This document shows positions 10,678 through 60,133 of a DNA stretch of 64,000 bases, one piece after another. The notes below the pieces were generated by a model. It saw nothing but the letters and a program-made list of their open reading frames with translations, was not told the origin of the DNA and made no database searches. How positions within the stretch are numbered: the first letter of the stretch is position 1; each line of letters opens with the position of its first letter. A program made the translations under genes and the position numbers. This stretch comes from Pyrinomonadaceae bacterium. Its GTDB lineage: Bacteria > Acidobacteriota > Blastocatellia > Pyrinomonadales > Pyrinomonadaceae. The stretch is from NCBI GenBank assembly GCA_035947355.1, contig DASZKF010000293.1:2697-66696 (forward strand), read 5' to 3'.

Positions 10678-10715
10678 CCGCCGAATCGAACGTCAACATC
10701 ACGGAGGCCGACGCG

Positions 10716-15007: not shown

Positions 15008-15018
15008 GCCGCCGCGCC

Positions 15019-15519: not shown

Positions 15520-15561
15520 AAGCCCTCTGAAGTTAACGTCGCGGATTCCCGCGGGCGGCCC

Positions 15562-28723: not shown

Positions 28724-28738
28724 TGGCGCGGCGCTTGC
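28724..28738 (+). promoter_or_regulatory. candidate sigma-54 (-24/-12) promoter
   Basis: TGGCGC-GGCGC-TTGC matches TGGCAC-N5-TTGC, including the GG/GC spacing. It lies 63 nt upstream of the first ORF of the tail-like locus and downstream of the bEBP gene. Confidence 0.5.
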
Positions 28739-34214: not shown

Positions 34215-34262
34215 GGCGCGCGGGGTTGACGTTCAGGACGCCCGCGGGAGGTGAGGGGCCTT

Positions 34263-34787
34263 ATGCGACCGATGCTCGACGACATCGAGCTGCCGCAGGT
34301 GCAGGAGATCGCCACGCTTGAGCGCCGCGTCCTCGCCGAGCACAAGCCGCCCGGCATGTCCGGCAGCCTCTTGCAGGACATGGGGCGGCGCCCCGCGCGT
34401 CTCACCCTGTGGGGCGTCGCCACCGGCCCCGAGGCGCGCGCCTTCGTCGAGAAGCTCGACGAGAAGTTCCGGGCCGCGGCGCCCGTCCCCTTCGTCGGCG
34501 ACATCGTGGCCGACGCCGACATCGAGCGGGTGGTGATCGAGAACCTGCGCGTGCAGGACCTCGCGGGCAAGCCCGAGCGCTTCGCCTACGTGCTCACCCT
34601 GCGCGAGTTCGTCGAGCCGGTCGCGGCGGAAGACCTCTCGCCGCTCGACGAGAGCATCGCCGGCGACGCGCTGGGCCTGATGGACAACCTCGTCAACGGC
34701 TTCGAGATCGTCGAGCGGCTCTCGGCCTTCGTGGGGCGCTTGACCGAACTGAATGAGGCCCTGCGGCGCCTGGCGAACCAGCCGTAG
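34263..34787 (+). CDS. hub/tube-initiator-like protein (Mu gp43 / Afp7 N-domain-like), short paralog
   Basis: ATG at 34263 after GGGAGGTGAGG. 'MLDDIELPQVQEI...LAEHKPPGMSGSLLQDMGRRPARLTLWGV...PVPFVGDIV...LAGKPERFAYVLTLREF' is clearly paralogous to the N-terminus of 35249..37120. Confidence 0.5.
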   Translation: MRPMLDDIELPQVQEIATLERRVLAEHKPPGMSGSLLQDMGRRPARLTLWGVATGPEARAFVEKLDEKFRAAAPVPFVGDIVADADIERVVIENLRVQDLAGKPERFAYVLTLREFVEPVAAEDLSPLDESIAGDALGLMDNLVNGFEIVERLSAFVGRLTELNEALRRLANQP

Positions 34788-35248: not shown

Positions 35249-37120
35249 ATGGCGCGTCCCATACTCGACGACATCGAGCTGGAGCAGGCGCAGGAGATCG
35301 AGGTCGAGGAGGAGCACGTCCTGGCGCAGCACTCGATTCCCGCGCTGGCGACCGACTTCCTCCAGCGCCTCGACCGCCGCGCGCTGCGCGTCACCCTCCA
35401 GGGCGTCCTGACGGGCGAGGGGGTGCGCGAGCGGCTCGAGCGGCTGCGCGAGAAGTACCGCGCCACCCAGCCCGTCCCCTTCGTCTCGGACGTGACGACG
35501 GCGACGAAGGTCGAGAAGGTCTTGATCGAGGAGCTGGGCGTCCGCGAGCTGGCCGGGAAGCCCGCGCGCTTCGAGTACGCCTTCACCCTGCGCGAGTTCA
35601 TCCCGCCGCCCGAGCCCGTGGTCGTGCCGCCGCCGCCCGTCCCGCCCAGGCCGCCCGTCGAGACGGGCACGCTCGTCGTCGAGGTGACGGTCGAGGGCGA
35701 GCCGGACTTCGACTTCGGCACGGTGACGGTGACGGCCGAGGGGCGGCAGGACGACGGCACGCAGCTCTCGCGCGAGCTGCGCAACCGCGCCGGGAACGTC
35801 TGGACGGAGGAGGTGATGCCGCCGGGGCAGTACACGGCGACGGCGGTCGTCACCGACCCCGAGGAGATGTCGGGGTCGGCCGCGGGCGGGGTGCGCGCGG
35901 CCGAGACGACCGTGCTGCAAATCACGCTGCGGCGCGGGACGGGCATCGCCAAGGCGTTCATCATCCACTTCCGCTTCGACAGCGCCTTCCTCGAGCCGTG
36001 CATGAGCGAGGTGCTGGGGCGCGTCTTCACCTACGCGCAGTCGCACCCGAACGAGAAGGTCGTCGTCGTCGGCCACACCGACCTGACCGGCTCGGACAAC
36101 TACAACCAGGCGCTCTCGGAGCGGCGCGCGCGCTCCGTCTTCGCCTGCCTCACCTTCGGCTCCAACGACGCGCTGCGCGCCTCGGCCCTCGCGGACTGGA
36201 ACGAGCTGCGGAAGAAGAGGGTGGCCCCCCCGAACGCGCCCACCATCAACGACACCTGGGCGACGCGCGAGTACCAGTACATGCTCCAGGAGCTGGAGTA
36301 CTACTCGGGCAACATAGACGAGAAGCACGGGCCGAAGACCGACGACGCCGTGCGCAGATTCCAGTCTGACAACGGCCTGCAGCAGACCGGCCAGGTGAAC
36401 GAAGACACCTGGCCCAAACTCATCGAGGCGTACCTCGGGGCCGTCGCGCTGGCCTTCCCTGAAGACCGCTTCCTGCGCAACGCGAAGGGCGGCTGCGACG
36501 GCGGCACCCTGAAGTGGCTCGGCTGCGGCGAGAAGGACCCGGTGAGGAATACGGAGGACGCCTGGCGGCCCAACCGCCGCACCGAAATCCTCTTCGTCCG
36601 CGTCGCCGAGCTGCCCTGCGAGGTGCCGCAGCCCTTCACCTTCGACCTGCCGGGGCCGGGGGCGGTGGCGGGCAGTTGGTGTCTGGGGCCAGGCGACCCC
36701 AACCAACGCTGCTGCTTCCTCACGCGCCAGAGCGAGCAGCCGAACAAGCTGCTGGTCAGGCCGGCCGAGCCGAACAAGGCGGTCGTCAGCGGCGTCGTGA
36801 CCTTCGACGACGGGTCGCCCGTCGCCAACCAGAAGTACGCGCTCATCGCGCCCGACGGCGAGTTCCTGCACACCGACGCGAACGGCAAACCGGACCTCGG
36901 CGAAAGGCCCTCGGGGCCGCAGAGGGGCCGCCCCATCCCGCAGCGCACGGACGAGGCCGGGCGCTTCAGCCACCCGCGCCAGACGCCGGTCGGCGTCTAC
37001 ATCCTGGAGCTGCTCGAACTGGGCGAGGCGACGGGCGAGACGACGCTGGTCGCGCGCGCCTCCGAGGAGCCGCCGCAGGAGGCGATAGGCAACGTGGTCT
37101 GCTTCACACTGGACGGTTGA
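35249..37120 (+). CDS. hub/tube-initiator-like protein fused to OmpA-like, PG_binding_1 and CarboxypepD_reg-like domains
   Basis: N-terminal ~125 aa are paralogous to 34263..34787. OmpA_C-like block 'FRFDSAFLEP...VVVVGHTDLTGSDNYNQALSERRARSV'. PG_binding_1 block 'YQYMLQELEYYSGNIDEKHGPKTDDAVRRFQSDNGLQQTGQVNEDTW'. C-terminal 'VSGVVTFDDGSPVANQKYALIAPDG...TDEAGRFS'. Confidence 0.7.
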   Translation: MARPILDDIELEQAQEIEVEEEHVLAQHSIPALATDFLQRLDRRALRVTLQGVLTGEGVRERLERLREKYRATQPVPFVSDVTTATKVEKVLIEELGVRELAGKPARFEYAFTLREFIPPPEPVVVPPPPVPPRPPVETGTLVVEVTVEGEPDFDFGTVTVTAEGRQDDGTQLSRELRNRAGNVWTEEVMPPGQYTATAVVTDPEEMSGSAAGGVRAAETTVLQITLRRGTGIAKAFIIHFRFDSAFLEPCMSEVLGRVFTYAQSHPNEKVVVVGHTDLTGSDNYNQALSERRARSVFACLTFGSNDALRASALADWNELRKKRVAPPNAPTINDTWATREYQYMLQELEYYSGNIDEKHGPKTDDAVRRFQSDNGLQQTGQVNEDTWPKLIEAYLGAVALAFPEDRFLRNAKGGCDGGTLKWLGCGEKDPVRNTEDAWRPNRRTEILFVRVAELPCEVPQPFTFDLPGPGAVAGSWCLGPGDPNQRCCFLTRQSEQPNKLLVRPAEPNKAVVSGVVTFDDGSPVANQKYALIAPDGEFLHTDANGKPDLGERPSGPQRGRPIPQRTDEAGRFSHPRQTPVGVYILELLELGEATGETTLVARASEEPPQEAIGNVVCFTLDG

Positions 37121-37158: not shown

Positions 37159-40100
37159 ATGAGCGGCACGAACGCGAACATCGGCGGGGCCGGATTCGAC
37201 TCAGTGGCGGGGGGGCTGCTGGCCGAAGGGCTGCTGGCGAAGGGCCAGCCGGCCGGCGCCGTCGTGCACCGCCAGCGCGCCGCGCCCGTCGCCGTCAACC
37301 CGACCATCACGGCGGCGCGCACCGTCGTCCTCGTCAAGCACACGCACACGACCCCCGCGAGGGTGAAGATCACGCTCAAGACGAGCCGACACTTCACCAG
37401 GGCCGGCACGCTCAGCCGCGTCGTCACGCCCACGAGCGGGGAGATTAAACTGTTCGACAAGGGCGGCGCCGAGATCGTCTTCACCAACTCGGAGCGCACC
37501 TTCACGGCCAAAGAGCTGTCCGTCGGCTTCGACCTGTTCGCCGAGGGCGTGAAGGCCAGCGGGAACCTCGACGACTTCACCCTCCGCCTGACTCTGGCGC
37601 CGGGGCCGACGCCCGTCGGCCCGCCGGCCGAGGTGAAGCTGACGGCCGTCGAACTGACGCTCGACGTCAGCCCGCCGCGCACCCCGCCCGCGCCCTTCGC
37701 CCCGCTGCCGCAGCCCCCGGCGGCCAAGCCCCCGGCGAACCCGCCGCCCAAAGACAAGTGGTTCGGCGGCGCCGTCGTCAGCGTCCAGGACGCCGGCAAC
37801 AACCAGCCGCGCGCGCAGCTCGTCGTCCGGCAGGTAAAGCCGAGCGGGTTCGCCGGGAAGCTCGTGCTGCGCCAGGCGGGCGTCGTCAACGACAAAGTCA
37901 CCAGCGCGGTGAACAGGGCGAAGCTCTTCGCGGACGAGGTGCCCGGCCCGAAGCGTAAGCCGCCCGCGAAGGAGTCGCCGCAACCGAACCCGTTCGTCTT
38001 CGACGCCGCCTCGGCCAACTCCCCGGCCGGGCGACAGTTCTTCGTCGAGGGCGCGTCGGCCAGTTCCGCACTGCGCGACGTGGCCTTCCAACTCGGCATC
38101 CAGAACGTCGAGAACGACGGCGACCGCGTCGCCCTGACGGTCGTCGCGGCCCCCGTGCTCGCCGCCGACTCGCCGGTCGTGGTGGTGAAGAAGGCGCACC
38201 TCAAGCTGAAGCGGCGCCTGATTACGGCCCGCGCGAGCGGCGCCTTCGGCGGGACGGGGAAGCTCACGCGCTCGGGCGCCGGCCCCATCCGGCTCTTCGA
38301 TAAGGCCGACGGGGGCAAGGAGGTAGACCTCTCGGGGGCGGGGCGGACGCTGACGGCCAACGAGCTGTCGAACGGCCTCCAACTCTTCGCCGAGAGCGTC
38401 CTGCCGAGCGGGAAGTCCGAAGACTACCAGCTCACGCTGACCCTCGTGCCGAAGCCGACCGGCGGCCTGCCCGTCGGGGCGCCGGCCACCCTCAAGATGA
38501 CGGCGGTCGAGGTGGCGCTCGACGTGGCCCAGAAGCGCACCGCGCCCGGCGTAGACCCGCCCCTGCTCTCGGCCGAAGACAAGATCAAGAAGGGGCGCTT
38601 CCTGCGCGTGCAGGACGCCAAGTTCAACTCGGCGCGCGCGATGCTCATCGTCCGCAAGCCGAAGCCCGGCGACTTCAAGGGCGAACTCGAGGTCGCGCGG
38701 CTCAAGAGCGACACGAAGAAGCAGGTCAGACTCTTCAAGGGCACGGAGGAGATCGCGGCCGCCGGCCAGACGCCCCTCACCGAGCCGGTCACGCTCAAGC
38801 CCGCCGACTTCGCCGCGGGCGACGTGAAGCTGTTCGCCGAGGGCGCGGTCAAGAGCAGCACGGAGCGCGAGACCGGCTTCACCCTCGCCGTCAAGGATGT
38901 CGAGCCCGAGGCCGACAAGGTGCTGATGACCGTGCGGGCGAACGTCAAGGCCAAGGGCAAGCTCTTCTGGAACCGGACGTGGGAATACAACACCGCGCCG
39001 AAGCTCCCCGCGACGGCCTCCATCCCCGCCGTCAAAGAGTTCCTGCCGGGGGCGAAGGTCGAGGTGCGCATCCAGCGGCCGGGGGCGGCCGACCTCACCG
39101 TCTTCCAGACCATCACGACCAAGGACGGCGCGAAGGTGACCGACCCGCACGGCGCCTTCGAGATTGTCGACCTGCCGGAGACGCCGAAGGCGGCGCTGCG
39201 CGTCCTGCTCGAATACCGCGACGCCAAGGTGGTCAACGTCCAGGGCGAGTCGGACCACATCGCCCAAGCCGACTTCGAGGTCAAGAAGGACAAGGTCGTC
39301 TTCCACCAGTTCGACCTCGACCTCTCGAAGCTGAACGAGAAGACGGTCGAGCTCGACTTCGGCGAGGTCGAAATCAAGAAGGCCAAGTTCGCGGAGATGT
39401 GCGACGCCTACAAGAGCATCTGGTTCGGGCACCACAAGCTCAAGGAGCTGACCGGCTTCGACGCCGACCTCTGCACCATCAGGTTCCCGGCCACCGGCGC
39501 GGTGTCGTTCCAGCGCGGCGCCGCGGTCGTCATCCTCGACGGCGACCTGAAAGACCGCGACGTGCTCCTGCACGAGTACGGGCACTTCGTCGCCGCGAAA
39601 ATCGGCAACATACCCAACCACCCCGAATACCTCTACAACGACACGCCGAAGCACGGCAGGGACACCAAAGAGCACTACGAGGCGGCGTGGCTCGAAGGGC
39701 CGGCGACCTTCCTCGCCTGCGCGCTCCAGAACGACGCGATCTACCACGACGGGTACGACGCGAACGTGACCTTCAACCTCGGCACGGATAACACGACCGT
39801 CGGCCCGCACGCCGAGGGGAGCATCCAGGAAGCCTTTTGGCGGATGCTCAAGGTTCACAAGCTCGACTTCAAGACCGGCTACTGGAAGGCGTTCACCGAC
39901 AAGTCCAAGCGCGCGAAGATCAACAACGTCTTCGAGTTCTTCGACAACTGGAAAGACCTGAAGCTCGCGGGCCTCAACCTCGTGCTCGAATCCTTCAAGC
40001 GGTTCAACATGGAGTTCGGCTACAAGTACCTTTCGGGCGCGGACAGGTTCAAGGCCGTCGCCCCGCCGAAGACGTTCAGCGAGGCCGCCAAGGAGTTCCG

Positions 40101-40296
40101 GACGATTGACGAGTTGTTCAACCACTTCGGGACGCTCGGCGGCGGGACGCTGGCCGACTACAAGGAGGAGTTCTACAACCGCAACAAGTTCTTCGCGGGC
40201 GGGGGCGCGATGGACACGGGTTCGAGCCACACCAACCCCAAAGTCGTGGTCAACAACTTCTACATCATCCCCCAACGCTTCCAGGTCAAGGTGTGA
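37159..40296 (+). CDS. large modular protein with C-terminal HExxH (HEYGH) putative zinc-peptidase domain; candidate cargo/toxin
   Basis: ATG at 37159. The N-terminal ~600 aa consist of two alternating module types, paralogous to 40802..43585. The unique Lys/Asn/Phe-rich C-terminal ~440 aa carries 'VLLHEYGHFV' at nt 39571-39585 and a downstream 'AAWLEGPATF'. Confidence 0.6.
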   Translation: MSGTNANIGGAGFDSVAGGLLAEGLLAKGQPAGAVVHRQRAAPVAVNPTITAARTVVLVKHTHTTPARVKITLKTSRHFTRAGTLSRVVTPTSGEIKLFDKGGAEIVFTNSERTFTAKELSVGFDLFAEGVKASGNLDDFTLRLTLAPGPTPVGPPAEVKLTAVELTLDVSPPRTPPAPFAPLPQPPAAKPPANPPPKDKWFGGAVVSVQDAGNNQPRAQLVVRQVKPSGFAGKLVLRQAGVVNDKVTSAVNRAKLFADEVPGPKRKPPAKESPQPNPFVFDAASANSPAGRQFFVEGASASSALRDVAFQLGIQNVENDGDRVALTVVAAPVLAADSPVVVVKKAHLKLKRRLITARASGAFGGTGKLTRSGAGPIRLFDKADGGKEVDLSGAGRTLTANELSNGLQLFAESVLPSGKSEDYQLTLTLVPKPTGGLPVGAPATLKMTAVEVALDVAQKRTAPGVDPPLLSAEDKIKKGRFLRVQDAKFNSARAMLIVRKPKPGDFKGELEVARLKSDTKKQVRLFKGTEEIAAAGQTPLTEPVTLKPADFAAGDVKLFAEGAVKSSTERETGFTLAVKDVEPEADKVLMTVRANVKAKGKLFWNRTWEYNTAPKLPATASIPAVKEFLPGAKVEVRIQRPGAADLTVFQTITTKDGAKVTDPHGAFEIVDLPETPKAALRVLLEYRDAKVVNVQGESDHIAQADFEVKKDKVVFHQFDLDLSKLNEKTVELDFGEVEIKKAKFAEMCDAYKSIWFGHHKLKELTGFDADLCTIRFPATGAVSFQRGAAVVILDGDLKDRDVLLHEYGHFVAAKIGNIPNHPEYLYNDTPKHGRDTKEHYEAAWLEGPATFLACALQNDAIYHDGYDANVTFNLGTDNTTVGPHAEGSIQEAFWRMLKVHKLDFKTGYWKAFTDKSKRAKINNVFEFFDNWKDLKLAGLNLVLESFKRFNMEFGYKYLSGADRFKAVAPPKTFSEAAKEFRTIDELFNHFGTLGGGTLADYKEEFYNRNKFFAGGGAMDTGSSHTNPKVVVNNFYIIPQRFQVKV

Positions 40297-40319
40297 GCCG
40301 CGCGAGGGAGGAGCATCGC

Positions 40320-40775
40320 ATGGACGAGGTCGGCCCTTTACCGTTCGGACTGAGCAGCGAGGAGCTGGGGCAGGTGCGGATCACCTACACCTCCCACTCC
40401 GCGAAGACCGGGGTCGGGAAGTCCCAGGTCGTCATCACGGGCGCGGGTCAAGTGCGGCTGCTCGAAGAGGCGTTCCTCGACGACCCGAACCCGCAGACGG
40501 CCGAGGGCGAAGTGCCGCCGCCGGTGGTGGCGCGGCTCCTCGACCTGATGCAGGAGGTTGACTTCTTCGCCCTGGAGGAGCTTTACCGCGGCGAGGGCGA
40601 GGCCCCCGGCGCCGTACACGTCATCGAACTCACGCTGCCCGGGAGGAGCAAGAAGGTGATGGTCTCACAGCCGACGACCGTCGTCCCTTTCGAGCGCGTC
40701 GCGGGCGCCATCAAGTTGAGCGCCGGGCTCGGCCTGCCGGCGGCGCTCCAGCAGCGTTTCTTCCAGAGGTTCTAA
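40320..40775 (+). CDS. small hypothetical protein following the first HExxH protein (possible immunity/chaperone)
   Basis: ATG at 40320 after GAGGGAGGAG. 151 aa with no signal peptide. No family recognised. Confidence 0.5.
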   Translation: MDEVGPLPFGLSSEELGQVRITYTSHSAKTGVGKSQVVITGAGQVRLLEEAFLDDPNPQTAEGEVPPPVVARLLDLMQEVDFFALEELYRGEGEAPGAVHVIELTLPGRSKKVMVSQPTTVVPFERVAGAIKLSAGLGLPAALQQRFFQRF

Positions 40776-40801
40776 ACGCCCGCGCGGCGCGGACGAGCGA
40801 G

Positions 40802-43585
40802 ATGAGCAGCACGCACATCGAAAAGTCGGGACTCGGCTCGGTGCCGGACGGGCTCCTGGCGCAGACCCCCGCCGGGCAGGCCGACGCGGTCGTGCATCGC
40901 CAGCGCCCTGCCCCGACGCCCATCGACCCGACGATCAAGGCCGACCAGACGCTCGTCGTCGTCAAGCGCCCGCACACGAGCCCCAAGAGGGTGAAGATCA
41001 CGGTCAAAACGAGCCGGCGCTTCACCAGGGACGGCACGCTCACGCTCGTCACCACGCCCACCAGCGGGGAGATCGCTTTCTTCACGACCGAGAAGGGCCA
41101 GAAGCAGTTCGTCTTCACCAACTCGCAGCGCACCTTCACCGCCACCGAGCTGTCCAAAGGCGTAGACATGTTCGCGGAGGGCGTGAGCCCGAGCAGCAAC
41201 CTCGGCGAGTTCCGCCTCGTCCTGACGCTCGCGCCGGGGCCGACGCCCGTCGGCCCGGACGCCGAGGTGGCGCTGACGGCCGTCCGGCTGTCCCTCAGCC
41301 TGAGCCCGCCGCGGGCCGGCTCCGGCGCGCCGTTCACGCCGCTGCCGGAGCCTCCACCCCCGCCCCCGCCCGCGGGCTCCAACGACAAGTGGTTCGGCGG
41401 GGCCGTCGTCAACGCCCAGGACACGGGCAACAGCCAGCCGCGCGCTCTGCTCGTGGTCGGCCAGGTGATCCCGACGGCCTTCGCCGGCGACCTCGTCCTG
41501 CGGCAGGTGAGCGTCGCGAACAACATCATCACCGGCCGCGCCGACCGCGTCCGACTCTTCGACGACGAGACGCCCGGCCCCCGGCAGACGCCGCCCGTCA
41601 ACGAGGCGCCGCACCCCACCCTGCTCGTCTTCAACGCCACCGACGCCGACTCCGCCGTCGGCCGGCGGTTCTTCGTCGAGGGCGTCACGCCCAGCGCCGC
41701 CCTGCGCGACACGGGGTTCCAGCTCGGCATCAACGGCGTGGAGGACGACGGCGACCGCGTCGCCCTCGCCGTCGCGGTCGCGCCGGTGGTCTCCGTGGAC
41801 TCGCCCATCGTCGTCGTCAGGAAGGCCCACACGACGCCCGCGCGCCGGGTGGTGACGCTGCGCACGAGCGGCGCCTTCAGCGGGACGGGCACGCTCACGC
41901 GCTCGACGACCGGCCCCGTCCGCATCTTCGACAGCGCGAGCGGCACGACCGAAGTTGACCTCTCCGGCGCGGGCCGCACCTTCGCCGGCGATCAGTTGAG
42001 TTCGACCGAAGGGGTGCGGGTCTTCGCCGAGAGCGTGCTCGCGAGCGGCAGCCTGAACGACTACACGCTCACCTTGACATTGACGGGCGGCCAAGCCCCG
42101 GTCGGCTCGCCGGCCACACTCTCCCTGACCGCCGTCGAATTCACACTGGACATATTTCATCCGCGCGCCGTGCCGGGCGCGAATCCGCCCGCGCTCGCGG
42201 GCACCGACAAGATAGACCCGGGGCGGTTTCTACAACTCCGAAACCCGGCGAACAGTCACACCCGGGCGAAGATCGTCGTTCGCCGCCCGAACCCGCTCGT
42301 CAGCGTCACGCTGGAGCTGTCGCCGGTCAACAATCAGGTGCGCGCGTTCACGTCCGAGGTGCCCGGCGCGGGGCAGACCCAACTCTCCAACCCCCATACG
42401 ATCCTTACCAGCCTCATCCCGCCGGGCGGGGCGGAGTTCTTCGTCGAGGGGATCTCGTTCAGCGGCGCGGCCCGCGATACGGGGTATCGGCTCGGCATTC
42501 AGGGCCTGGAGAATGAGGCTGACCGGGTCGTCGTCACGGTCTTCAATTTGGACGTGGTGAGTAACGTTTTCCCGTTCGGGACGGCCGTCGAGCCCGTGCA
42601 GATCGAGGGCATTTTGAACGCCTCCCTCTCCGGCTTCAGAATCAGCAACCTCATCGGGACCCAGTCGAACTCCCTCTTCAGGGCGCGCGTCGAGATGCCC
42701 GGCTTCCCCGGCAACTCTATCCAGGCCATGCTGGTCAGCACGGCGACGCCGGCCGAACTGCCACAGCCCATTAATCTGTTCCGCAACAGCGGCGATAGAT
42801 TCCTGTCGCGCCCCATCCTGGCGATCCCCGAAGCCATACTTCGTGCCGGCATCACGTTCGGAGCCCCACAGGAGCTCGACGTGGTTCGCGCCCGGGCCGG
42901 CGGCACGTTCCGGCTGGACTTGGCCGGGTCCTTCTCCGGCGCGGGCGTCAGGCTCGTCCGGGTGCGCGGTCGCGTAGTCAACATTGCCGCGCAGGCTTTC
43001 ATCAACACGAACATTGACCTCGCGGCCATCCGGCGACACATCCGGCGCGCCAACCAACTGTGGGCGCAGGCCGGCATCGAGGTGAAAGAGCGCAGCGCCG
43101 CCGCCCCCGTGGCCCACCCCTCGGGACTCAACGACATAGATTTCACCCTCCCCTTCGCCAGCACGCTCACCACCAAGGAGCGGCGGCTGCTGGGTCTGCT
43201 CCCTAACGGCCCGTCCCGGAGTGCCGTGTTGAGGGACATGAACGTCTACTACGTGCGCCGGATTAACGGGCCGCCCGCCGGCGTCGCCTACAGCGGGGAG
43301 AGCTACCCCGGACTGATCGCCGACCCCAACAACACGGCGATTGCGATTGAAGGGCCGGTCATCTCAGACCTGGGCCTGGCCCACGAACTCGGACACCACT
43401 TCCTGCGCGCCTGGGGCGACGAACACAAGGATCAGACGGCGACGCCCCCGACCGACTGGCCGGCGGCCAACATCATGCACCCGGCCGATACGGGCACCGC
43501 GACGACGATAGACAGAACGCAGGTGCTCAACATCCTGAACGGGACGAGCGGCGGCAACCACCCCTGCATCGTCTTTGAGCCTTGA
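40802..43585 (+). CDS. large modular protein with a different C-terminal HExxH (HELGH) domain; candidate cargo/toxin
   Basis: The N-terminal ~600 aa are collinear with 37159..40296 (for example 'AVVHRQR.AP....PTI.A..T.V.VK..HT.P.RVKIT.KTSR.FTR.GTL', 'DKWFGGAVV..QD.GN.QPRA.LVV.QV', 'FFVEG...S.ALRD..FQLGI..VE.DGDRVAL.V'). The unique C-terminus carries 'ANQLWAQAGIEV' and 'LGLAHELGHHFLRAWGDEH' (nt 43382-43396). Confidence 0.6.
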   Translation: MSSTHIEKSGLGSVPDGLLAQTPAGQADAVVHRQRPAPTPIDPTIKADQTLVVVKRPHTSPKRVKITVKTSRRFTRDGTLTLVTTPTSGEIAFFTTEKGQKQFVFTNSQRTFTATELSKGVDMFAEGVSPSSNLGEFRLVLTLAPGPTPVGPDAEVALTAVRLSLSLSPPRAGSGAPFTPLPEPPPPPPPAGSNDKWFGGAVVNAQDTGNSQPRALLVVGQVIPTAFAGDLVLRQVSVANNIITGRADRVRLFDDETPGPRQTPPVNEAPHPTLLVFNATDADSAVGRRFFVEGVTPSAALRDTGFQLGINGVEDDGDRVALAVAVAPVVSVDSPIVVVRKAHTTPARRVVTLRTSGAFSGTGTLTRSTTGPVRIFDSASGTTEVDLSGAGRTFAGDQLSSTEGVRVFAESVLASGSLNDYTLTLTLTGGQAPVGSPATLSLTAVEFTLDIFHPRAVPGANPPALAGTDKIDPGRFLQLRNPANSHTRAKIVVRRPNPLVSVTLELSPVNNQVRAFTSEVPGAGQTQLSNPHTILTSLIPPGGAEFFVEGISFSGAARDTGYRLGIQGLENEADRVVVTVFNLDVVSNVFPFGTAVEPVQIEGILNASLSGFRISNLIGTQSNSLFRARVEMPGFPGNSIQAMLVSTATPAELPQPINLFRNSGDRFLSRPILAIPEAILRAGITFGAPQELDVVRARAGGTFRLDLAGSFSGAGVRLVRVRGRVVNIAAQAFINTNIDLAAIRRHIRRANQLWAQAGIEVKERSAAAPVAHPSGLNDIDFTLPFASTLTTKERRLLGLLPNGPSRSAVLRDMNVYYVRRINGPPAGVAYSGESYPGLIADPNNTAIAIEGPVISDLGLAHELGHHFLRAWGDEHKDQTATPPTDWPAANIMHPADTGTATTIDRTQVLNILNGTSGGNHPCIVFEP

Positions 43586-43596
43586 TCGGGGAAGAC

Positions 43597-44085
43597 ATGT
43601 CTGAAGAGACGGCACGAGAGGTGCGACGACTTTTGACGCCTACCGACGACGTGAACGGCTGGCTGCGGAGAGTCAGGGCGTTGGACGCGGACGAGGCGCT
43701 CCCTTTGCTCTTAGCAATCCTGGGCGGCGCGCAGGAGTCGCCGGGGGATCGTTTACAGGCCGCTTTAGTCCTGGGGTATCTACGCGACCCGCGCGCCGTC
43801 GGCACCCTCGTCGAAGCGATGCAAGCGGCCGACCCCGTCATGCGCGCCCAGGCCGCCGAGTCGCTGGGGCTGATCGGGGCCGCGGAAGAGAGGGTGCTCC
43901 GGCAGTTGATCCAAGGGCTTAACGACGAAGACTACTTCGTCCGGGAGTGCAGCGCGAAGGCGCTGGGACGTTTGGGGAGTCCCGAAGCCGCCCCCCACCT
44001 GGAACGGATGAGTGCCGCCGATCCGGTCGCGAGCAACCGTGAGGCGGCGCAAAGGGCCGTCGAGTCGTTGCGGGGGAGCGCTTAG
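43597..44085 (+). CDS. HEAT/PBS-lyase-type repeat protein following the second HExxH protein (possible immunity protein)
   Basis: Three or four 'D(P/E)..VR..AA.(S/A)LG.(L/I)G' units (DPRAVGTLVEAM, DPVMRAQAAESLGLIG, DEDYFVRECSAKALGRLG). Nearly abuts the preceding stop. Confidence 0.7.
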   Translation: MSEETAREVRRLLTPTDDVNGWLRRVRALDADEALPLLLAILGGAQESPGDRLQAALVLGYLRDPRAVGTLVEAMQAADPVMRAQAAESLGLIGAAEERVLRQLIQGLNDEDYFVRECSAKALGRLGSPEAAPHLERMSAADPVASNREAAQRAVESLRGSA

Positions 44086-44089
44086 ACTT

Positions 44090-45112
44090 ATGCTCAGTCC
44101 GGCCTACAAACTGACCGTCGGGCGCAAGGTCGTTGACACCACGGACGAGCCGCGCGCGAGCACCGTCGTCGAGCTGTCGGTGCGCCTCGACCTCGACACG
44201 CCTCTGGACGACTGCAAGCTCGTCCTCGGCAACGTCGGCGGCGTCAGGCCGGCCGTCGGCGACGAGGCGAAGGTCGAGCTGGGCTACGCGGACGACGACG
44301 GCGGGCTGACGCAGGTCATGGAGGGGACGGTCGTCTCGTCCGAGCCCGGCCTGACGACCACGCGCGTCCTCGTGGACGGCGGGGCGGCGGCGCTTTTGCG
44401 CACCTTCGTCGAGCAGACCTACGAGGGCAAGACCGCGGGCGCCATCGTCCGCGACCTGGCCGGCAAGGCGGGCGTGCGCGTGGCGGCCGCCGGCGACGGC
44501 ATCAAGTTCCCGGCCTACGTCGTCGACGGCCGGCGCAGCGTCTACCGGCACATGCGCGACCTGGCCGACCTCAGCGGCTTCGACCTCTACGTCAACGCCG
44601 ACGGCGAACTCGCGTTCGAAGAGTTCGTCGGCGGGAAGGCCGTGCACGTCTTCGAGTTCGCCAAGCACGTCGTGGCCCTCGAAGTGACGCGGGCCGAGCC
44701 GCTGGCCGGGCGGGTCGAGGCGTGGGGCGAGAGCCCGACGGGGAGCGAGGGCGACGACGCGTGGGCGTGGCTGACCAAGGACTTCACGCGCTCGCGCGGG
44801 AAGGCCGGCGACGGCCCACTCCTGCTGCTGGAGCGGCCGGCGCTGCGCACGACCGAGGCGGCGCGCACGGCCGCGCAGGCGGCGCTGACGGCCATCCGGC
44901 GGCGGACGCTGCGCGGGCGCGTGCTGACCATCGGGCGGCCGCAGGTCAAGCTCGGCGACGCCATCCGCCTGCGCGGGATGGCCGACGAGTCGCTGAACAC
45001 GAACTTCCAGGTGCGGAGCGTCGAGCACCGCATCACCAAGCGCGGGGGCTTCACGACGGCCGTCGGCTTCCGCGCCATCGAGGCCCCGGCCGCGGCCGGG
45101 CTCGGCGCGTAA
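44090..45112 (+). CDS. baseplate hub protein, phage late control gpD / gp27-like
   Basis: 'AYKLTVGRKVVD...', 'DEAKVELGYADDDGGLTQVMEGTV', and C-terminal 'NFQVRSVEHRITKRGGFTTAV' are typical of the gpD family. Located directly upstream of gpV. Confidence 0.8.
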   Translation: MLSPAYKLTVGRKVVDTTDEPRASTVVELSVRLDLDTPLDDCKLVLGNVGGVRPAVGDEAKVELGYADDDGGLTQVMEGTVVSSEPGLTTTRVLVDGGAAALLRTFVEQTYEGKTAGAIVRDLAGKAGVRVAAAGDGIKFPAYVVDGRRSVYRHMRDLADLSGFDLYVNADGELAFEEFVGGKAVHVFEFAKHVVALEVTRAEPLAGRVEAWGESPTGSEGDDAWAWLTKDFTRSRGKAGDGPLLLLERPALRTTEAARTAAQAALTAIRRRTLRGRVLTIGRPQVKLGDAIRLRGMADESLNTNFQVRSVEHRITKRGGFTTAVGFRAIEAPAAAGLGA

Positions 45113-54689: not shown

Positions 54690-57600
54690 ATGAAACTGAG
54701 TGACCGCTTCGACGGCAGCGGCGCGCCCTTCGAGGGCGACCGCACGGCCCTCCTGCGCGGCCTGCCCGCGGGCGCGCAAATCCGGCGCGCGGCGGCGGTC
54801 GTCTCCCCGTTCGACGCCACGCGCGGGCTCGACCCGTTCGCCGAGACGATCACCTTCGACCGCGCCTCCGGCGGCTGGGGGGCGACGAAGCGGAGGAACG
54901 TGGCGGCGGCGGGCGGGCCGACGACGGACAACTGGGTGGAGGTGGACTTCCACCGCCGCCGGACGCTCGCCGGCCTCCGGGGCACGAACCTCAACCCCTC
55001 GACGCTTCAGGTCGACTTCGGCGGCGCCTACGTCGAGATCAACGCCAGCGGGGGCGTCCTCTCACCCCCGCAAACCAACGCCTTCCGCGTGACGGCCGAC
55101 AGCGCGACGCTGCCCGGCCTGACCGTGACCAAGCTCAAACTGACGGCCCAGCCCACGTCGCCGTCGCCCGCGGGCACTCCCGACCTGTCGGAGGTGACCG
55201 TCCGCAGCGCCCCCTCCAACCTCACGCTCCGGCTCGGGCAGGGGCCGGCCGTCTGGACTCACGCCGGCGAGATGACGCGGGCCGAGGAGACGCCCGACTT
55301 CGCGCTGGCGCTCCAGTCCTTCCTGACCGGGGCGGAGGTCGAGAACGGCTTCTACGTCGTCCCGCTGGTGCTGCACTCCGACACCATCGCGCGGCTGACG
55401 GTCGAGCTGGAGATCGACTACCTTTTGCAGGAGAGCGTCCTGCCCGAGGGGCTGACCGACGTGGTCTTGCCCTTCGACTTCGGCGGCGCGCCCAAGTCCG
55501 GGGCCGAGGCGCTGCTCGTCAAAGTCCCGGCCAACTCCCGCGTCGCGCCGCGCGGGGTCAAGGCGAGGGTGGCCGGGGCCTTCCAGGAGACGCGTATCGT
55601 CTACGCCCCGACCGAAGGGCTCGCGCCGGGCGGGGCCGCCGACGTGTCGCCCGCCACGTCGCAGGCCCAACCCGTCACGCCGCCGGCCGACCTGAAGGCG
55701 ACGGCGCTCGACCTCCTGCTCAACGTCGAGCGCCCCGCGCGTCTGCAACTCGACGTGCGCGACGACCTCGACGGCAAGCCCGGCAGCGCCTCGCTGCTGC
55801 CCGCGCCCGTCGCCTTCGACGTGCCCGGCCCCGTCGGGCAGCGCCCGTCGCCGCAGGAGGCGCAGCGGTTCAACTGGGTCAGCGTCCCGCTGCCGGCCGA
55901 GCTGCAATTCCGCGGAGGCAAGACCCACTGGCTCATCTTGCAGAGCGTTGACGGCGCGGCGAAGTGGCGCGCCGCCCCGGCGGCCGCGGCGGCGCTCGGG
56001 TTGCAGAACACGCGGGACGGCGGGCTCTCCTGGAGGGCGACGGCCGTGGCCGGCGTGCCCGGCGCGGCGGCCTCCTTCTACCGCCTGCGCCGCAAGCCGG
56101 AGCAGTTCGAGATGCCCGTCGCGCTGCGGGTGGGGGCGGGCGAGCGGGCCGTCGTCGTCAGCCTGGACCGCTTCAAGCCTTCGGGCCGGGTCGACTTCAC
56201 ACTCGACATTGACGAAGTATCGCAGGCGTTCAACCAGTACCTCGACGGGAGCGGGGCCGACGCCTGCGTCGGGAGCAAGCACCTGGCGAACGGCGACTTC
56301 GAGAGGTGGCAGGCCGTCGGCGACCGGTTCGGGACGCCGGCCGCCATCGGCGCCGCGGAGGAATTGGACGCGCAGGTCATCGCCTTCACGCCGGACGGAC
56401 GGACGGCCTACGTCGGCGGCGACGACGTGATCGCGTTCGCGGACGCGCAGTGCGACGAGCTGCTGCCCGAGCGGCTGGAGGTCAGCGGCACGCCGCGCTC
56501 CATCGTCTTCCACCCGGACGGCACGCGCGCCTACGTCGTCGCGGGCCAGAGGGTGTTGGTGCTCGACACCGCCACGCGGAAGGCGCTGAGCGGGTTCGCC
56601 AGCCGCGACGAGACGGTCGTCGCGCTGGGCGTGAGCCCCGACGGCCGCACGCTCTTCGTCGCGGAGGAGCAGGCCGCCTGGGCCATCTCGACGGTCGCGC
56701 TGGAGGGGGAGGTGCTGACCGGCAAGGCGACGGTGCAGCAGAGGACGCAGGCCGCGCTCCAGTTGGGGTCGAATCAATTCATCACCGACATGGCGCCCGC
56801 GCCCGACGGGCGGCGGCTCTACCTGCTGGTGAGGAACTCCGGTGACGGCCCGGAGTCGGAGGGCGAGGTTCAGGTGTACGAGGCCGCCACGCTGCGGGCC
56901 GCGGCCGCGCCCATCACGGTCGGCCGCTTCCCGACCGACATCGCGCTCTCGCCGGATGGCAGGAGGGCCGTGGTCGTCAACGACAGCGACATCAGCGTCA
57001 CCATCGTCAACCTCGAACGCGGCGCCGTCGTGTCCACCATCGCGCTCGACGACACGCCCGACCGCGCGGCGTTTCTGCCCGACGGGCGGCGGGCCCTGGT
57101 CACCAAGCAGGAGAGCCTGACGGTAGATGTCGTAGACCTCGAACGCCGCGCGCTGGCCCAGCCCATCACGCTGCCGGACGGGCCGCCCGACTCGCTCGCC
57201 GTCAGCACGCAGGGCGACCGCGTCTACTTCGGGGTGGGGGGGATTCGGCCCTTGATCTCCGTCCCGCTGGGCGTGCGGCTGCCGGTCGAGTGGAACCTGA
57301 CGGCGGGGCGCGTGAGGCCGGTCTGCCTGCCCGCGCCCGCGCACCTCGCGGCGCTGCTCGGCAGCCTCGGGCAAGAGACTCCGGCGGCGGCGAGCATCTC
57401 CCAGGTCGTGCCGGTCGCGGCATCGTGCGTCTACGAGTTCAGCTTCTGGGGCCTCGCCACAGAGCCGGACGCGACGGCCGAGGTCTTCTGGCTGGCCGGC
57501 GGCTGCGGCCTCTCGCGCACCGACCGCGTCCCCATCGAAGCGTCGCCGCAGGCGCCCGCGCCGCCGCCCACGACGCCCGTCCCGCTCACCACCCTGGCGC

Positions 57601-59084
57601 TCGCCTTCGCCGCGCCGCAAAGACCGGAGCTGGTGCTGCACCGCGTGACGCTCACGTCGCCGCCCGGGGCCGAGCAGGCGGAGGTGCGCTTCAGCGCGCC
57701 CGAGGGCGTGGCGGCCGTCGTCGACCGCGCCTCGCTGACGGCCACGAACGAAGCCGTCGCCAACTCCGACTTCAAACTCGTCGAGCAGGGGCAGCTCTCC
57801 GGCTGGGCGCTCAGGCCCGCGGGCGCCGTCGGCGCCTCCATGCTCGCGGCCGAGGGCGCGCTCCGGCTGCGCAACGCGGGCGCCGACGAGGTCGCTCTGA
57901 CGCAGGAGTTCGAGGTCGAGGGCGGCCAGCCTTTCGAGCTTGAGTTTCAAGGGGGCGCGCAGCCGCCAGCGAACGCGCGCGCCACTTCCCGCGTAGAGGT
58001 GCGCTGGCTCGCGGCCGACGGGTCGCAGGCGGGCGAGCCCGCGGTCCTGAAGATCGGCGCTTCGGGCTTCGGCTCCTCGCTGGCGAAGGGCGTGAGCCCT
58101 GACGCGGCGACGCGCGGCGAGGTCAGCCTCTTCGTGCCGCCCGGGGCGTCGCTGGAAGCCAAACGCGTCTCGCTCAGATTCCCCAAGCCGTCGCTCGTCC
58201 CGCTCACCTTCGTGTCGGAGGCGCCGGGAGAGCTGACGGTGACGGGCTTGCAGGTGGCCTTCGAGCAGGCCGAGCCGAAGCCGCCGCCGATCCCGCCGAG
58301 GGGGCTGTGCGCGTCTACGCCGGCCGGCATGTCGCCGGGCGACGAGTGCGCGGAAGAGGAGGGCTTCTGCCCCTGCTGCGGGTGCGCCTCGGAGATGAGG
58401 GAAGTGCGGCCGGCCGTGACGCCTGCCGGCCGGCCGGCGCGGGTCGTACGTTGCGCCGAATGCGGGACCGAGTTGGTGCGCGTCGGCGGGCCGCTCGTCG
58501 CCGGGGCGAAACCGGTCGTGTCCACGCGCCTTGAGGTGCGGCGACCCGTCATCGAATCACGCCAGCGCGTCGAGACGCACCACCATCACGAGGTGGCAGG
58601 CACGCCGCCCCACGGCCCCGCGGATAAGCACTCAGAGGCCGCACCCGCGGAAGGGCTGACGGAAGAATTGACGGACGCCGCGCCCGCAGGAGAAGTCACT
58701 GAGACTCCCCCCGCGGAAGAGGTCACGGAAACTGCCCCCGCGGAAGGGACGACGGAAGCCGCGCCGGCGGCAGAGGCGGCGGAAACTTCACCGGCTGAAG
58801 AAGCAACCGGAGTTGCTCGCGCGGAAGAGGGGACTGAGGCCGCGCCGGCAGGGGAACGGACGGAAGCCGCGCCGAAGGCCGCCGAGCCTTCGCTGACCGA
58901 CATCTCTGGCATCGGCAAAGTGCGGGCGCGGCAGTTAAAGGAAATGGGCATCGGCTCCGTGGCGGAACTCGCCGCCGCGAACCCGGAGGACTTAACCCGG
59001 CTGCCGCTCGTGTCGTTGAAGTTGGCCGAACAATTCGTCGAGAAGGCGAAGGAGCTGACGAAGGGGGAGAGCGGCGACTCCTAA
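54690..59084 (+). CDS. 1464-aa fibre-slot protein with YVTN-type beta-propeller, jelly-roll-like domains, zinc ribbon, acidic repeats and C-terminal helix-hairpin-helix
   Basis: Propeller blades at about nt 56390-57240 ('SIVFHPDGTRAYVV', 'LGVSPDGRTLFVA', 'MAPAPDGRRLYLL', 'IALSPDGRRAVVVN', 'AAFLPDGRRALVT', 'LAVSTQGDRVYF'). 'NGDFERW' and 'NSDFKLVEQGQLSGW' are CBM-like starts. 'CPCCGC...CAECG' is a zinc ribbon. 'LTDISGIGKVRARQLKEMGIGSVAELAAANPEDL' is an HhH motif. Confidence 0.6.
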   Translation: MKLSDRFDGSGAPFEGDRTALLRGLPAGAQIRRAAAVVSPFDATRGLDPFAETITFDRASGGWGATKRRNVAAAGGPTTDNWVEVDFHRRRTLAGLRGTNLNPSTLQVDFGGAYVEINASGGVLSPPQTNAFRVTADSATLPGLTVTKLKLTAQPTSPSPAGTPDLSEVTVRSAPSNLTLRLGQGPAVWTHAGEMTRAEETPDFALALQSFLTGAEVENGFYVVPLVLHSDTIARLTVELEIDYLLQESVLPEGLTDVVLPFDFGGAPKSGAEALLVKVPANSRVAPRGVKARVAGAFQETRIVYAPTEGLAPGGAADVSPATSQAQPVTPPADLKATALDLLLNVERPARLQLDVRDDLDGKPGSASLLPAPVAFDVPGPVGQRPSPQEAQRFNWVSVPLPAELQFRGGKTHWLILQSVDGAAKWRAAPAAAAALGLQNTRDGGLSWRATAVAGVPGAAASFYRLRRKPEQFEMPVALRVGAGERAVVVSLDRFKPSGRVDFTLDIDEVSQAFNQYLDGSGADACVGSKHLANGDFERWQAVGDRFGTPAAIGAAEELDAQVIAFTPDGRTAYVGGDDVIAFADAQCDELLPERLEVSGTPRSIVFHPDGTRAYVVAGQRVLVLDTATRKALSGFASRDETVVALGVSPDGRTLFVAEEQAAWAISTVALEGEVLTGKATVQQRTQAALQLGSNQFITDMAPAPDGRRLYLLVRNSGDGPESEGEVQVYEAATLRAAAAPITVGRFPTDIALSPDGRRAVVVNDSDISVTIVNLERGAVVSTIALDDTPDRAAFLPDGRRALVTKQESLTVDVVDLERRALAQPITLPDGPPDSLAVSTQGDRVYFGVGGIRPLISVPLGVRLPVEWNLTAGRVRPVCLPAPAHLAALLGSLGQETPAAASISQVVPVAASCVYEFSFWGLATEPDATAEVFWLAGGCGLSRTDRVPIEASPQAPAPPPTTPVPLTTLALAFAAPQRPELVLHRVTLTSPPGAEQAEVRFSAPEGVAAVVDRASLTATNEAVANSDFKLVEQGQLSGWALRPAGAVGASMLAAEGALRLRNAGADEVALTQEFEVEGGQPFELEFQGGAQPPANARATSRVEVRWLAADGSQAGEPAVLKIGASGFGSSLAKGVSPDAATRGEVSLFVPPGASLEAKRVSLRFPKPSLVPLTFVSEAPGELTVTGLQVAFEQAEPKPPPIPPRGLCASTPAGMSPGDECAEEEGFCPCCGCASEMREVRPAVTPAGRPARVVRCAECGTELVRVGGPLVAGAKPVVSTRLEVRRPVIESRQRVETHHHHEVAGTPPHGPADKHSEAAPAEGLTEELTDAAPAGEVTETPPAEEVTETAPAEGTTEAAPAAEAAETSPAEEATGVARAEEGTEAAPAGERTEAAPKAAEPSLTDISGIGKVRARQLKEMGIGSVAELAAANPEDLTRLPLVSLKLAEQFVEKAKELTKGESGDS
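58630..58880 (+). repeat. imperfect tandem Glu/Thr/Ala/Pro-rich coding repeats
   Basis: Repeated '(A/P)PA(E/G)E(V/G)TE(T/A)' units: AAPAEGLTEE, AAPAGEVTET, PPAEEVTET, APAEGTTEA, SPAEEATG, AAPAGERTEA. Confidence 0.6.
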
Positions 59085-59090
59085 ATACCC

Positions 59091-59441
59091 TTGAGCGACC
59101 GCTCGCACCTTACACTTAACGCCCGCCTGATACCCATTCCAAGTGAGTGTCGCCCCGGACGTAACGCGTCCGGTAAGAGGCGTGCTCGGAGGTGGGCTGA
59201 CGTCGACGAGTCCGACCGACTCGTCTTCGTCATGAAGGCCAAGAACGGCAGGTCACGCACGAGCCCCTTAACCGAGCGGGCGCTCGGCATACTCCGCCGC
59301 CTGCGGCAGGACGCGCCCGAAGACGAGTTGATCTTTGATCCCGTCCCGCAGAGGCTGAGGGACGCCGCGGACAGTCGGGAGGAGGGGAAGCGCCCGATTT
59401 CGGCTACGCCGACTCTACGCCAAGTGGCGAAAAGGGCCTGA
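59091..59441 (+). pseudogene. truncated tyrosine-recombinase (phage integrase) remnant
   Basis: 'RRWADVDESDRLVFVMKAKNGRSRTSPLTERALGILRRL....DELIF' matches the start of the integrase catalytic domain (W.DvD....i.i...K.gk.R..Pl). The N-terminal SAM-like domain and the C-terminal His/Tyr catalytic region are both absent. Confidence 0.5.
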
Positions 59442-59501: not shown

Positions 59502-59591
<90 letters not shown>

Positions 59592-60119: not shown

Positions 60120-60133
60120 TGAGGAGTACGAGA

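Follow-up and report, generated by a model that had tools for sequence, protein, structure and literature searches.

What would a contractile phage tail do with two large paralogous proteins encoded between two of its hub genes? The question is raised by a phage-tail-like gene cluster in a Pyrinomonadaceae soil bacterium (phylum Acidobacteriota), within a 64,000-nucleotide stretch of DNA, called here the window (positions 2,697 to 66,696 of contig DASZKF010000293.1, assembly GCA_035947355.1). The two products, arms A and B, occur as open reading frames (ORFs) of 1045 and 927 aa exactly where an earlier reading, made from the sequence alone, had placed them, and they are identical to the NCBI hypothetical proteins VG148_10440 and VG148_10450 of a Pyrinomonadaceae metagenome-assembled genome (MAG). 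The analysis reported here makes it probable that A and B serve a headless, Mu-like contractile tail machine as exchangeable effector (toxin) arms, accompanied by cognate immunity or inhibitor proteins.

The two arms have a stalk in common and end in different heads. Their N-terminal regions of about 600 aa are collinear, as the sequence-only reading had noticed (BLASTP gives 316 identities in 594 positions, 53%, between A aa 4-592 and B aa 2-580), and the divergence of the C-termini that it described is complete, as BLASTP finds nothing in common after the shared region. An internal duplication is also evident: A 41-335 aligns to B 321-587 with 38.7% identity (E = 9e-47). The same reading had recognized two alternating module types, each present twice; the duplication holds, but the two types are not distinct, being distant homologues within one domain family. 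Hidden Markov models (HMMs) of the two types detect each other, and profiles built separately from the odd and the even modules of 45 four-module proteins align with an hhalign probability of 96.8% (E = 3e-10, 111 columns). Thus, the stalk consists of four copies of one all-beta (beta-sandwich) domain of about 125 aa, with a and b subtypes alternating, and not of unrelated types.

The AlphaFold model of full-length B (pLDDT 86, pTM 0.65) has a disordered leader at aa 1-34, followed by all-beta modules; by analogy, the leader of A (aa 1-44) is probably disordered too. Foldseek searches of this model against PDB and BFVD returned only generic tandem beta-sandwich arrays (alpha-2-macroglobulin/complement, the N-domains of protein-arginine deiminases (PADs), and FN3/Ig phage proteins), and nothing specific to the stalk or to the B head. 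Pfam (E ≤ 1), PHROGs and NCBIfam gave no match for A, B or the 151-aa protein encoded after A, and the stalk module is covered by no Pfam or NCBIfam model. In a library of 1.84 billion representatives of clusters at 50% identity, the module pair was detected in only 427 clusters at E ≤ 1e-3.

On its structural model, the head of A (aa 593-1045) is a thermolysin-like gluzincin that does not belong to family M4. The model (pLDDT 94.1, pTM 0.92) combines an N-terminal beta-sandwich with a two-lobed helical catalytic domain. Its best Foldseek match is vibriolysin (3nqx, E = 1.5e-6, probability 1.0, TM-score on the target 0.54), followed by aureolysin (7skm_C, E = 1.2e-5) and then by M1 peptidases. 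The gluzincin-like layout that had been read from the letters of this end is therefore supported by a thermolysin-type two-lobed fold in both the model and the structural matches. No match to Peptidase_M4 or M4_C was found in Pfam at E ≤ 1, nor any sequence or profile match to M4 in PDB, and for this reason the head is filed as a thermolysin-like fold only. A single-sequence search of PDB with the head gave chance matches only, and the profile of its family matched only the OmpA parts of fused members.

Further support for a zinc peptidase comes from the family of the A head, which has 50 further cluster representatives. The HEYGH motif, whose position had been given exactly, is invariant in the 37 family members aligned and conserved in all 51, and it sits (H213, E214 and H217 of the head model) in model helix 208-223. 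Farther along the chain, E246 and E254 (same numbering) are invariant, and H247, Y248, E249, A251 and W252 are at least 90% conserved; E246, E249 and E254 lie in or beside model helix 248-265. Across the family, HEYGHF and EHYExAWxEGxATF are invariant or nearly so. Fusion to OmpA/PG_binding_1, or an annotation as LysM-containing, is found in about half of the A-type heads.

For the head of B (aa 581-927), an assignment as a metzincin-like protease is proposed with medium confidence. Its family is smaller than that of A. All relatives aligned keep the H-E-x-x-H, a third His and, farther along, a Met without variation; the HELGH motif lies precisely where it had been reported. The Met (M892, in the context N-[ILV]-M) follows the third His by 17 residues and is the Met of a putative Met-turn. 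Short members of the family show the metzincin spacing HExxHxxxxxH (HEIGHVLTLPH) with the Gly absent, and B itself carries an insertion that places the third His 10 residues past the second (HELGHHFLRAWGDEH). A profile of the family obtained 42 matches in PDB, nearly all of them metzincins (atragin, BaP1, adamalysin II, fragilysin, MMP-8 and karilysin), aligned over the motif and the Met-turn with E values of 0.02-2.8, and a single-sequence search with the head gave chance matches only. The first alignment of full-length B was discarded, as 46 unrelated heads had been forced onto the B head at about 14% identity, and was replaced by the stalk-trimmed alignment A3. One relative of the B-type head, P0158 (607 aa), has a second metzincin-like motif near its N-terminus (HELGHFLNLEH...LMFG), so that it contains two protease domains.

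The heads of A and B are two samples from a larger repertoire. When the C-termini of 104 stalk-bearing proteins were compared, they formed 11 similarity groups, with at least four large families besides singletons. The largest (40 members) is a heterogeneous HExxH, metzincin-like group that includes B; the fold of the next (31) is unassigned, 21 members are PETase/chlorophyllase-like hydrolases, and five members, among them a VgrG fusion, belong to another HExxH type. Seven heads, including A and a PLD, are singletons. Outside this grouping stands a protein-arginine deiminase head on a hub-fused protein of 1911 aa (P0183, PAD_M + PAD, E = 5e-90); eukaryotic PADs are also found among the Foldseek matches of the stalk, through their N-terminal Ig-like domains. 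The PETase/chlorophyllase-like, PAD and PLD heads are among the payloads that Pfam recognizes. In two loci, L001 and L003, the backbone of the cluster is nearly identical, and the heads and the genes downstream of them differ. The layout of a polymorphic toxin, a constant N-terminal region with variable and unrelated C-termini, had been suggested from the two arms of the window and is now seen across the whole set. The C-terminal domains of A and B, moreover, appear to be enzymes and not fiber tips, in agreement with the same suggestion, as their HExxH motifs are conserved and the predicted folds are those of proteases.

A search with A returned 106 cluster representatives, which share a general architecture of a carrier (or nothing), then two, three or four modules, then a variable C-terminus of 300-600 aa. 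The commonest carrier, which makes up the first ~600-630 residues of about 38 proteins, is collinear with aa 3-622 of the hub protein encoded just upstream of A in the window (46-63% identity) and is followed by two to four modules and a head. In these fused proteins, of which the 1652-aa protein of Geoalkalibacter halelectricus and P0063 are examples, the modules join directly after a conserved ...GNVVCxRL motif, which is the point where the hub protein of the window ends (...GNVVCFTLDG). Other carriers occur as well. P0066 is a complete VgrG (Phage_GPD, Phage_base_V, Gp5_trimer_C) followed by modules and head; its locus (L006) is a full type VI secretion system (T6SS) with VipB/TssE/F/G/ClpV/Hcp, in which a second VgrG is followed by a protein with OmpA, peptidoglycan-binding domain, modules and head. 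A few relatives have a subtilase ahead of the modules.

The hub protein of the window contains an OmpA-like domain at aa 241-302 (9e-11) and PG_binding_1 at aa 340-390 (3e-15), and the phrog matches of the latter segment are endolysins. Its N-terminal domain is probably Mu gp43-like, judging from its homologues: 16 of 29 homologues scanned, which are 47-65% identical to it, match Pfam DNA_circ_N (PF07157) with a best E of 3.1e-6, and P0183 reaches 22.2 bits where the cut-off is 21. This gp43-like/DUF6046-like domain is present in the window in a bare copy (34251-34787) and in the extended copy of the hub protein (35249-35602), and the gene pair is kept in nine related loci, a hint that the hub may contain a hetero-oligomeric ring. 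The possibility that a programmed frameshift links the hub gene with A was considered, as the A frame is open back to 36514, and rejected: the hub stop, the 38-nt spacer and the ATG of A look ordinary, and a long alternative-frame ORF at this place is unremarkable because it is expected at the GC content of the window (about 70%).

The backbone of the cluster recurs in the five contigs looked up and in nine of 12 genome hits, in the order sheath, tube, bare paralogue of the hub N-domain, hub protein, stalk plus head (fused or separate), small gene, gpD, spike, gp25, J and a protein of about 1650 aa. These loci come from Acidobacteriota, Cyanobacteria (Heteroscytonema, Aulosira), Chloroflexota (Promineifilum), Desulfuromonadota (Geoalkalibacter halelectricus) and proteobacterial MAGs. 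The placement of the arms between the gp43-like and gpD genes had been called unusual for payloads of contractile injection systems in the sequence-only reading; within this lineage of tail-like clusters it is the norm. It would be explained by the arm being a detached C-terminal extension of the hub protein, and what is unusual in the window is the presence of two detached arms in tandem. From these comparisons we infer that the window holds a split and duplicated version of a hub-borne effector arm. In Geoalkalibacter halelectricus (CP092109; L004, 17902-20334), an 810-aa subtilase (Peptidase_S8, fervidolysin-like propeptide, P-domain) is encoded between the spike and the 110-aa gene at the PAAR position, possibly a second payload slot of the same machine. 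The Geobacter cluster GSU0972-0992 has an AAA ATPase and is not counted here as a member of this lineage.

The surrounding genes identify the machine. The cluster extends from about 29.1 to 59.1 kb with its genes co-directional, and sheath, chaperone, hub, spike, gp25/W and J follow each other in phage order, as in a Mu-like/P2-like contractile tail module. No head, portal or terminase genes are found 5' of the cluster, where the region from 0.5 to 25 kb holds housekeeping and secondary metabolism genes, and the module is therefore a headless tail (tailocin-like or similar to a contractile injection system, CIS) and not a prophage. The prophage alternative is rejected on account of this absence, and the 3' side offers only a tRNA and a toxin-antitoxin-like pair. 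Among the genes scanned from 27054 to 59084 there is no Afp15-like AAA+ ATPase, the sole AAA+ protein being a sigma-54 activator. No T6SS genes occur in the window, and the arms are separate proteins, so that they are not evolved VgrGs here.

Each arm is followed by a small ORF, and neither product has a signal peptide (the N-termini of both were judged by eye), as the earlier reading had remarked. The gene after A has a ribosome-binding site, GGGAGGAG, 5' of its ATG, and the identification of the gene after B as a HEAT-repeat protein is corroborated by HEAT_2 (E = 1.6e-21). Counting as B-type the heads that can be aligned to B over its length, a HEAT gene follows B-type heads in five of five loci and other heads in none of nine; the homologues directly 3' of B-type heads are those of the window, L001, L002 (34.6% identity, E = 1e-27), L013 (E = 7e-71) and L023 (E = 4e-15). 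The 151-aa protein likewise follows A-type heads in five of five loci, with homologues (36-41% identity, E = 1e-27 to 1e-34) directly 3' of the A-type domains in L007, L008, L009 and L011. A third head type is accompanied by its own partner of about 325 aa in three of three loci (Geoalkalibacter, L010 and the T6SS locus L006). As judged from gene neighborhoods, then, the small downstream genes co-vary with the head type, as would be expected of cognate partners.

The four A-type loci other than the window are unrelated loci that are not tail clusters and show T6SS hallmarks instead: Archangium violaceum has a VgrG, L009 has DUF4123 on the upstream side, and L011 encodes a PAAR-OmpA-peptidase protein. 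Partners with signal-peptide-like N-termini occur in two T6SS contexts (L011_188 and L006_349), and the versions in tail clusters lack such N-termini. L011 has two paralogous partners of the 151-aa type, only one of which carries a Sec-type signal peptide. In this locus (JGI Ga0265324_10000086, 8001-11175 and 14037-16940), an A-type head is fused to OmpA/PG_binding_1 and followed by the two partner genes, with a PAAR-OmpA-Peptidase_C2 protein and an M14 peptidase nearby; judged by its gene content, it looks like an effector island built round peptidoglycan-anchored proteases.

The GC content at third codon positions (GC3) bears on the age of the cassettes. It is 0.859 in the B head and 0.785 in the HEAT gene (region 42542-44085), against 0.93-0.98 in other cluster genes, and 0.947 in the A head. 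The lower values suggest that the B head and its HEAT gene were imported recently as a cassette, later than that of A.

How the arms might work can be outlined. Homology, domain folds, motif conservation, gene fusions and the co-variation of heads with partners are what the analysis establishes; loading, delivery, toxicity, target compartment and neutralization are what we infer from them. In the ancestral and still commonest form, stalk and head would be a C-terminal extension of the central hub protein. In the window, the gene would have been split just past the conserved ...GNVVCxxL motif, and the free arm then duplicated, one copy gaining a different head together with the partner gene of that head. 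The arms would assemble onto the hub/spike complex, covalently in the fused relatives and presumably through the leader here; the hub-stalk-head fusions of the relatives tie the mounting region physically to the puncturing complex, and the same may hold for the split form. Upon contraction of the sheath, the arms would be carried through the outer layers of the target, the peptidoglycan-binding domains of the hub would anchor it there, in wall or periplasm, and envelope or periplasmic substrates would be attacked by the proteases. Action in the target cell wall or periplasm is suggested by the OmpA and PG_binding_1 domains of the hub and also by A-type heads, which are often fused to domains of this kind. 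The 151-aa protein would bind and neutralize the A head, and the HEAT protein the B head, in this case in the cytoplasm of the producer; the partners of the window may protect mainly the producer during particle assembly.

Several points weigh against this account. The peptidoglycan-binding domains suggest periplasmic action, yet no signal peptide is present in the partners of the window or in three A-type partners in T6SS-associated loci (L007-L009). The hub protein of the window itself has no DNA_circ_N match at E ≤ 0.01. The zinc motif of B differs from the canonical metzincin HExxHxxGxxH, the PDB matches of its profile are below significance, and Foldseek with full-length B finds only beta-sandwich arrays. 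Finally, metalloproteases mounted on a tail hub could just as well serve penetration. In this main rival explanation, the arms are tail-associated (virion-associated) lysins: kept at the hub tip by the stalk and guided by OmpA and PG_binding_1, the proteases would make local cuts in peptidoglycan cross-links or envelope proteins for passage of the tube, as lysin domains of phage hub or tail-tip proteins do. This would fit their fusion to a hub protein with two peptidoglycan-binding domains, the OmpA/PG_binding_1 or LysM domains of about half of the A-type head family, and the endolysin matches of the hub. Penetration enzymes, however, need no cognate downstream partner, yet each head type has its own, and the same head-partner cassettes appear in T6SS effector islands beside VgrG, DUF4123 and PAAR. 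Moreover, the arginine deiminase, PETase-like hydrolase and PLD payloads are not wall-lytic, and no relative was found among the viral contigs of IMG/VR, a weak negative because the scan used two short peptide patterns and had limited sensitivity. The explanation is therefore disfavored and judged quite improbable.

A low but appreciable probability is given to a different role for the partners, according to which the arms are effectors and the small proteins, instead of giving immunity, act as chaperones or adaptors for loading or as transient inhibitors inside the cell (prodomain substitutes). They would then keep the protease inactive and fit for assembly in the cytoplasm of the producer and give no protection from attack by others. 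The lack of a signal peptide in both partners of the window agrees with it, HEAT repeats are typical protein-binding scaffolds, and an active protease would need masking while particles are assembled in the cytoplasm. Against it stands the position of the genes, which, downstream of the effector, is the usual one for immunity, whereas the T6SS adaptor DUF4123 of L009 lies upstream. Two partner families have signal-peptide-like members in T6SS contexts, which points to the compartment where the incoming toxin acts, and L011 retains both an exported and a cytoplasmic copy; for the partners in T6SS contexts, immunity thus fits better than chaperoning. It is scarcely credible that the arms are structural fibers or receptor-binding proteins, with the beta-sandwich array as a stalk, the C-terminal domains as binding tips and a vestigial HExxH, even if phage tail and fiber proteins often contain tandem Ig/FN3-like arrays and the arm genes lie among baseplate genes. 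This reading is disfavored because the catalytic residues are invariant: the HExxH, the further ligand residues and the Met-turn are kept across both head families. In addition, the A head is confidently predicted as thermolysin-like, unrelated enzymes are swapped in as heads at the same locus, and the 1464-aa beta-propeller protein at the end of the cluster is a better candidate for a fiber.

Taken as effector arms with cognate partners, A and B can be compared with known systems, of which VgrG2b and PA0261 of Pseudomonas aeruginosa are, by analogy, the closest functional counterparts. VgrG2b carries a C-terminal HExxH metallopeptidase that is a periplasmic toxin, depends on the HExxH and is neutralized by the product of the downstream gene PA0261 (PMC6899460). 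The pair belongs to the Tpe-Tpi family, and PA0261 needs its signal peptide (PMC6899460). The fused relatives of the arms resemble VgrG2b in having an HExxH metallopeptidase that extends the C-terminus of a protein at the tip or hub of a contractile machine, with a cognate, putatively neutralizing partner encoded immediately downstream, and one stalk relative, P0066, is an evolved VgrG in its own right, encoded within a complete T6SS locus. There are also clear differences. A Mu gp43-like hub protein that also has OmpA and PG_binding_1 takes the place of VgrG as the carrier, a new stalk of four beta-sandwich modules stands between carrier and head, and the arms of the window are detached and duplicated. 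The heads are not detectably related, VgrG2b being outside the top 50 Foldseek matches of the A head, and the partners in the window, unlike PA0261, have no signal peptide.

Three other kinds of systems offer partial parallels. Polymorphic toxins, such as Rhs/PAAR proteins, contact-dependent inhibition (CDI) systems and MIX/FIX T6SS effectors, combine a conserved N-terminal delivery region with variable C-terminal toxins and a co-varying downstream immunity gene, and they exchange cassettes. The arms share with them the constant N-terminal region, the variable heads, the co-varying downstream gene and the occurrence of the cassettes in different systems; unlike in the known examples, the conserved region is a new domain, common to a tailocin-like machine and to T6SS. 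In the extracellular contractile injection systems (eCIS) Afp and PVC, the structural genes are followed by those for the payloads, the payloads are separate proteins in the lumen of the tube, and an Afp15-like AAA+ ATPase is needed. Here, too, the predicted toxins are encoded in the same operon as a headless phage-tail-like particle, but the payload of the window is encoded with a hub gene on either side and either is an extension of the hub protein or has descended from one, and the ATPase is absent from the cluster genes scanned. Lastly, T4 gp5 lysozyme and the C-terminal peptidase domains of siphophage Tal are enzymes on hub or tip proteins. The arms resemble such tail-associated lysins in placing an enzymatic domain on the central hub/tip protein together with peptidoglycan-binding elements and differ from them in the polymorphic heads, some of them non-lytic enzymes, in the cognate partner genes, and in the cassettes common to T6SS islands.

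A broader proposal, put forward tentatively and with somewhat more doubt than confidence, is that the module of about 125 aa, in a/b pairs, is a portable tip-mounting domain by which toxins are tethered to a gp43-like hub or a VgrG or travel as free cargo. The sigma-54-controlled Mu-like cluster of Acidobacteriota, Cyanobacteria, Chloroflexota and Proteobacteria would, in this proposal, be a distinct injection class that loads via the central hub and not via the tube lumen or the spike. In the literature, no description was found of this type of cluster, of the stalk domain, of hub-fused effectors in tailocin-like clusters, of gp43 in injection systems, or of the A-type head and its partner family. 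If the reading as effector arms is correct, swappable enzyme heads on a modular stalk, from or onto the central hub, would be a new route to arming phage-tail-like nanomachines, and tailocin-like particles and T6SS would be linked by common effector cassettes and a carrier domain. With the stalk module as a new marker domain, little-studied phyla could also be searched for toxins and immunity proteins, and several of the head and partner families found here carry no annotation. The natural fused and split forms suggest graft sites for foreign cargo on such particles, and the role of a gp43-like hub with peptidoglycan-binding domains in headless tails becomes testable.

The features of the window are collected in Table 1.

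Table 1. Genes of the tail-like cluster and its surroundings, and motifs and domains of arms A and B (nucleotide positions in the window)
Feature	Position	Strand	Remarks
Sigma-54 activator (enhancer-binding protein)	27054-28469		Gene directly 5' of the cluster
Sheath	30109		
Tube	31832		Assigned from position only
Tail-assembly-chaperone-like gene	32410		
446-aa gene	32874		
178-aa paralogue of the hub protein N-terminal domain	34251-34787	+	52% identity, aa 1-118, E 2e-36; weak DUF6046 match
149-aa protein	34753		
Hub/carrier protein, 623 aa	35249-37120	+	OmpA + PG_binding_1 (Pfam)
Arm A, 1045 aa	37159-40296	+	Leader aa 1-44; modules aa 45-172, 198-331, 329-458, 473-594; beta-sandwich aa 593-738; metallopeptidase aa ~739-1045
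HEYGH zinc-binding/catalytic motif of A	39571-39585	+	H805, E806, H809
EHYEAAWLE of A, aa 838-846	39670-39696	+	Candidate helix for third zinc ligand (Glu)
151-aa partner of A-type head	40320-40775	+	
Arm B, 927 aa	40802-43585	+	Leader aa 1-34; modules aa 40-169, 194-324, 325-453, 468-587; beta-rich aa ~590-735; catalytic aa ~736-927
HELGH of B	43382-43396	+	H861, E862, H865; invariant in all aligned family members
Third His (H875) and Met of putative Met-turn (M892, ...ANIMHP...) of B	43424-43477	+	H109 and M126 of alignment A4, invariant
162-aa HEAT-repeat partner of B-type head	43597-44085	+	
gpD-like (gpD/VgrG-related) baseplate hub	44012-45112	+	phrog_196 baseplate hub 3e-10; phrog_52 tail protein 5e-13; NCBIfam VgrG_rel 6e-7
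gpV-type spike	45138		
110-aa gene	Between spike and gp25/W		PAAR position in homologous cluster
gp25/W	46310		
Baseplate_J	46780		
1757-aa protein, then 310-aa protein	3' of Baseplate_J		
1464-aa protein, last cluster gene	54690-59084		Beta-propeller (Lactonase/WD40-like matches) + helix-hairpin-helix (HHH_5, 1.5e-11)

As called, the gene for the gpD-like hub overlaps the HEAT gene by 74 nt; the alignments with its homologues begin at aa 9-27, and its true start is probably later than 44012. The 1464-aa protein, which from its domains could be a fiber or receptor-binding protein, also contains a Cys-rich stretch (CPCCGC...CAECG) and acidic TEAAPA-like repeats, an odd combination of domains.

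Between the sigma-54 activator gene and the first gene of the cluster (29104) there is a -24/-12-like site, TGGCGCGGCGCTTGC, at 28724-28738, with one mismatch to TGGCAC-N5-TTGC; across the window as a whole, the pattern with two mismatches allowed is not enriched. The homologous clusters in L001 and L003 are also preceded by the same sigma-54 activator gene. Just 3' of the cluster, a short ORF (59091-59441) is followed by a tRNA-Ser(CGA) gene on the minus strand (59502-59591). Beyond it lies a pair of 110-aa ORFs (59787-60119 and 60119-60451) that resembles a HigB/RelE-type toxin with a helix-turn-helix (HTH) antitoxin, and the GC content falls to 0.58 at 60-62 kb. A mobile element may end in this region, or integration may once have taken place here.

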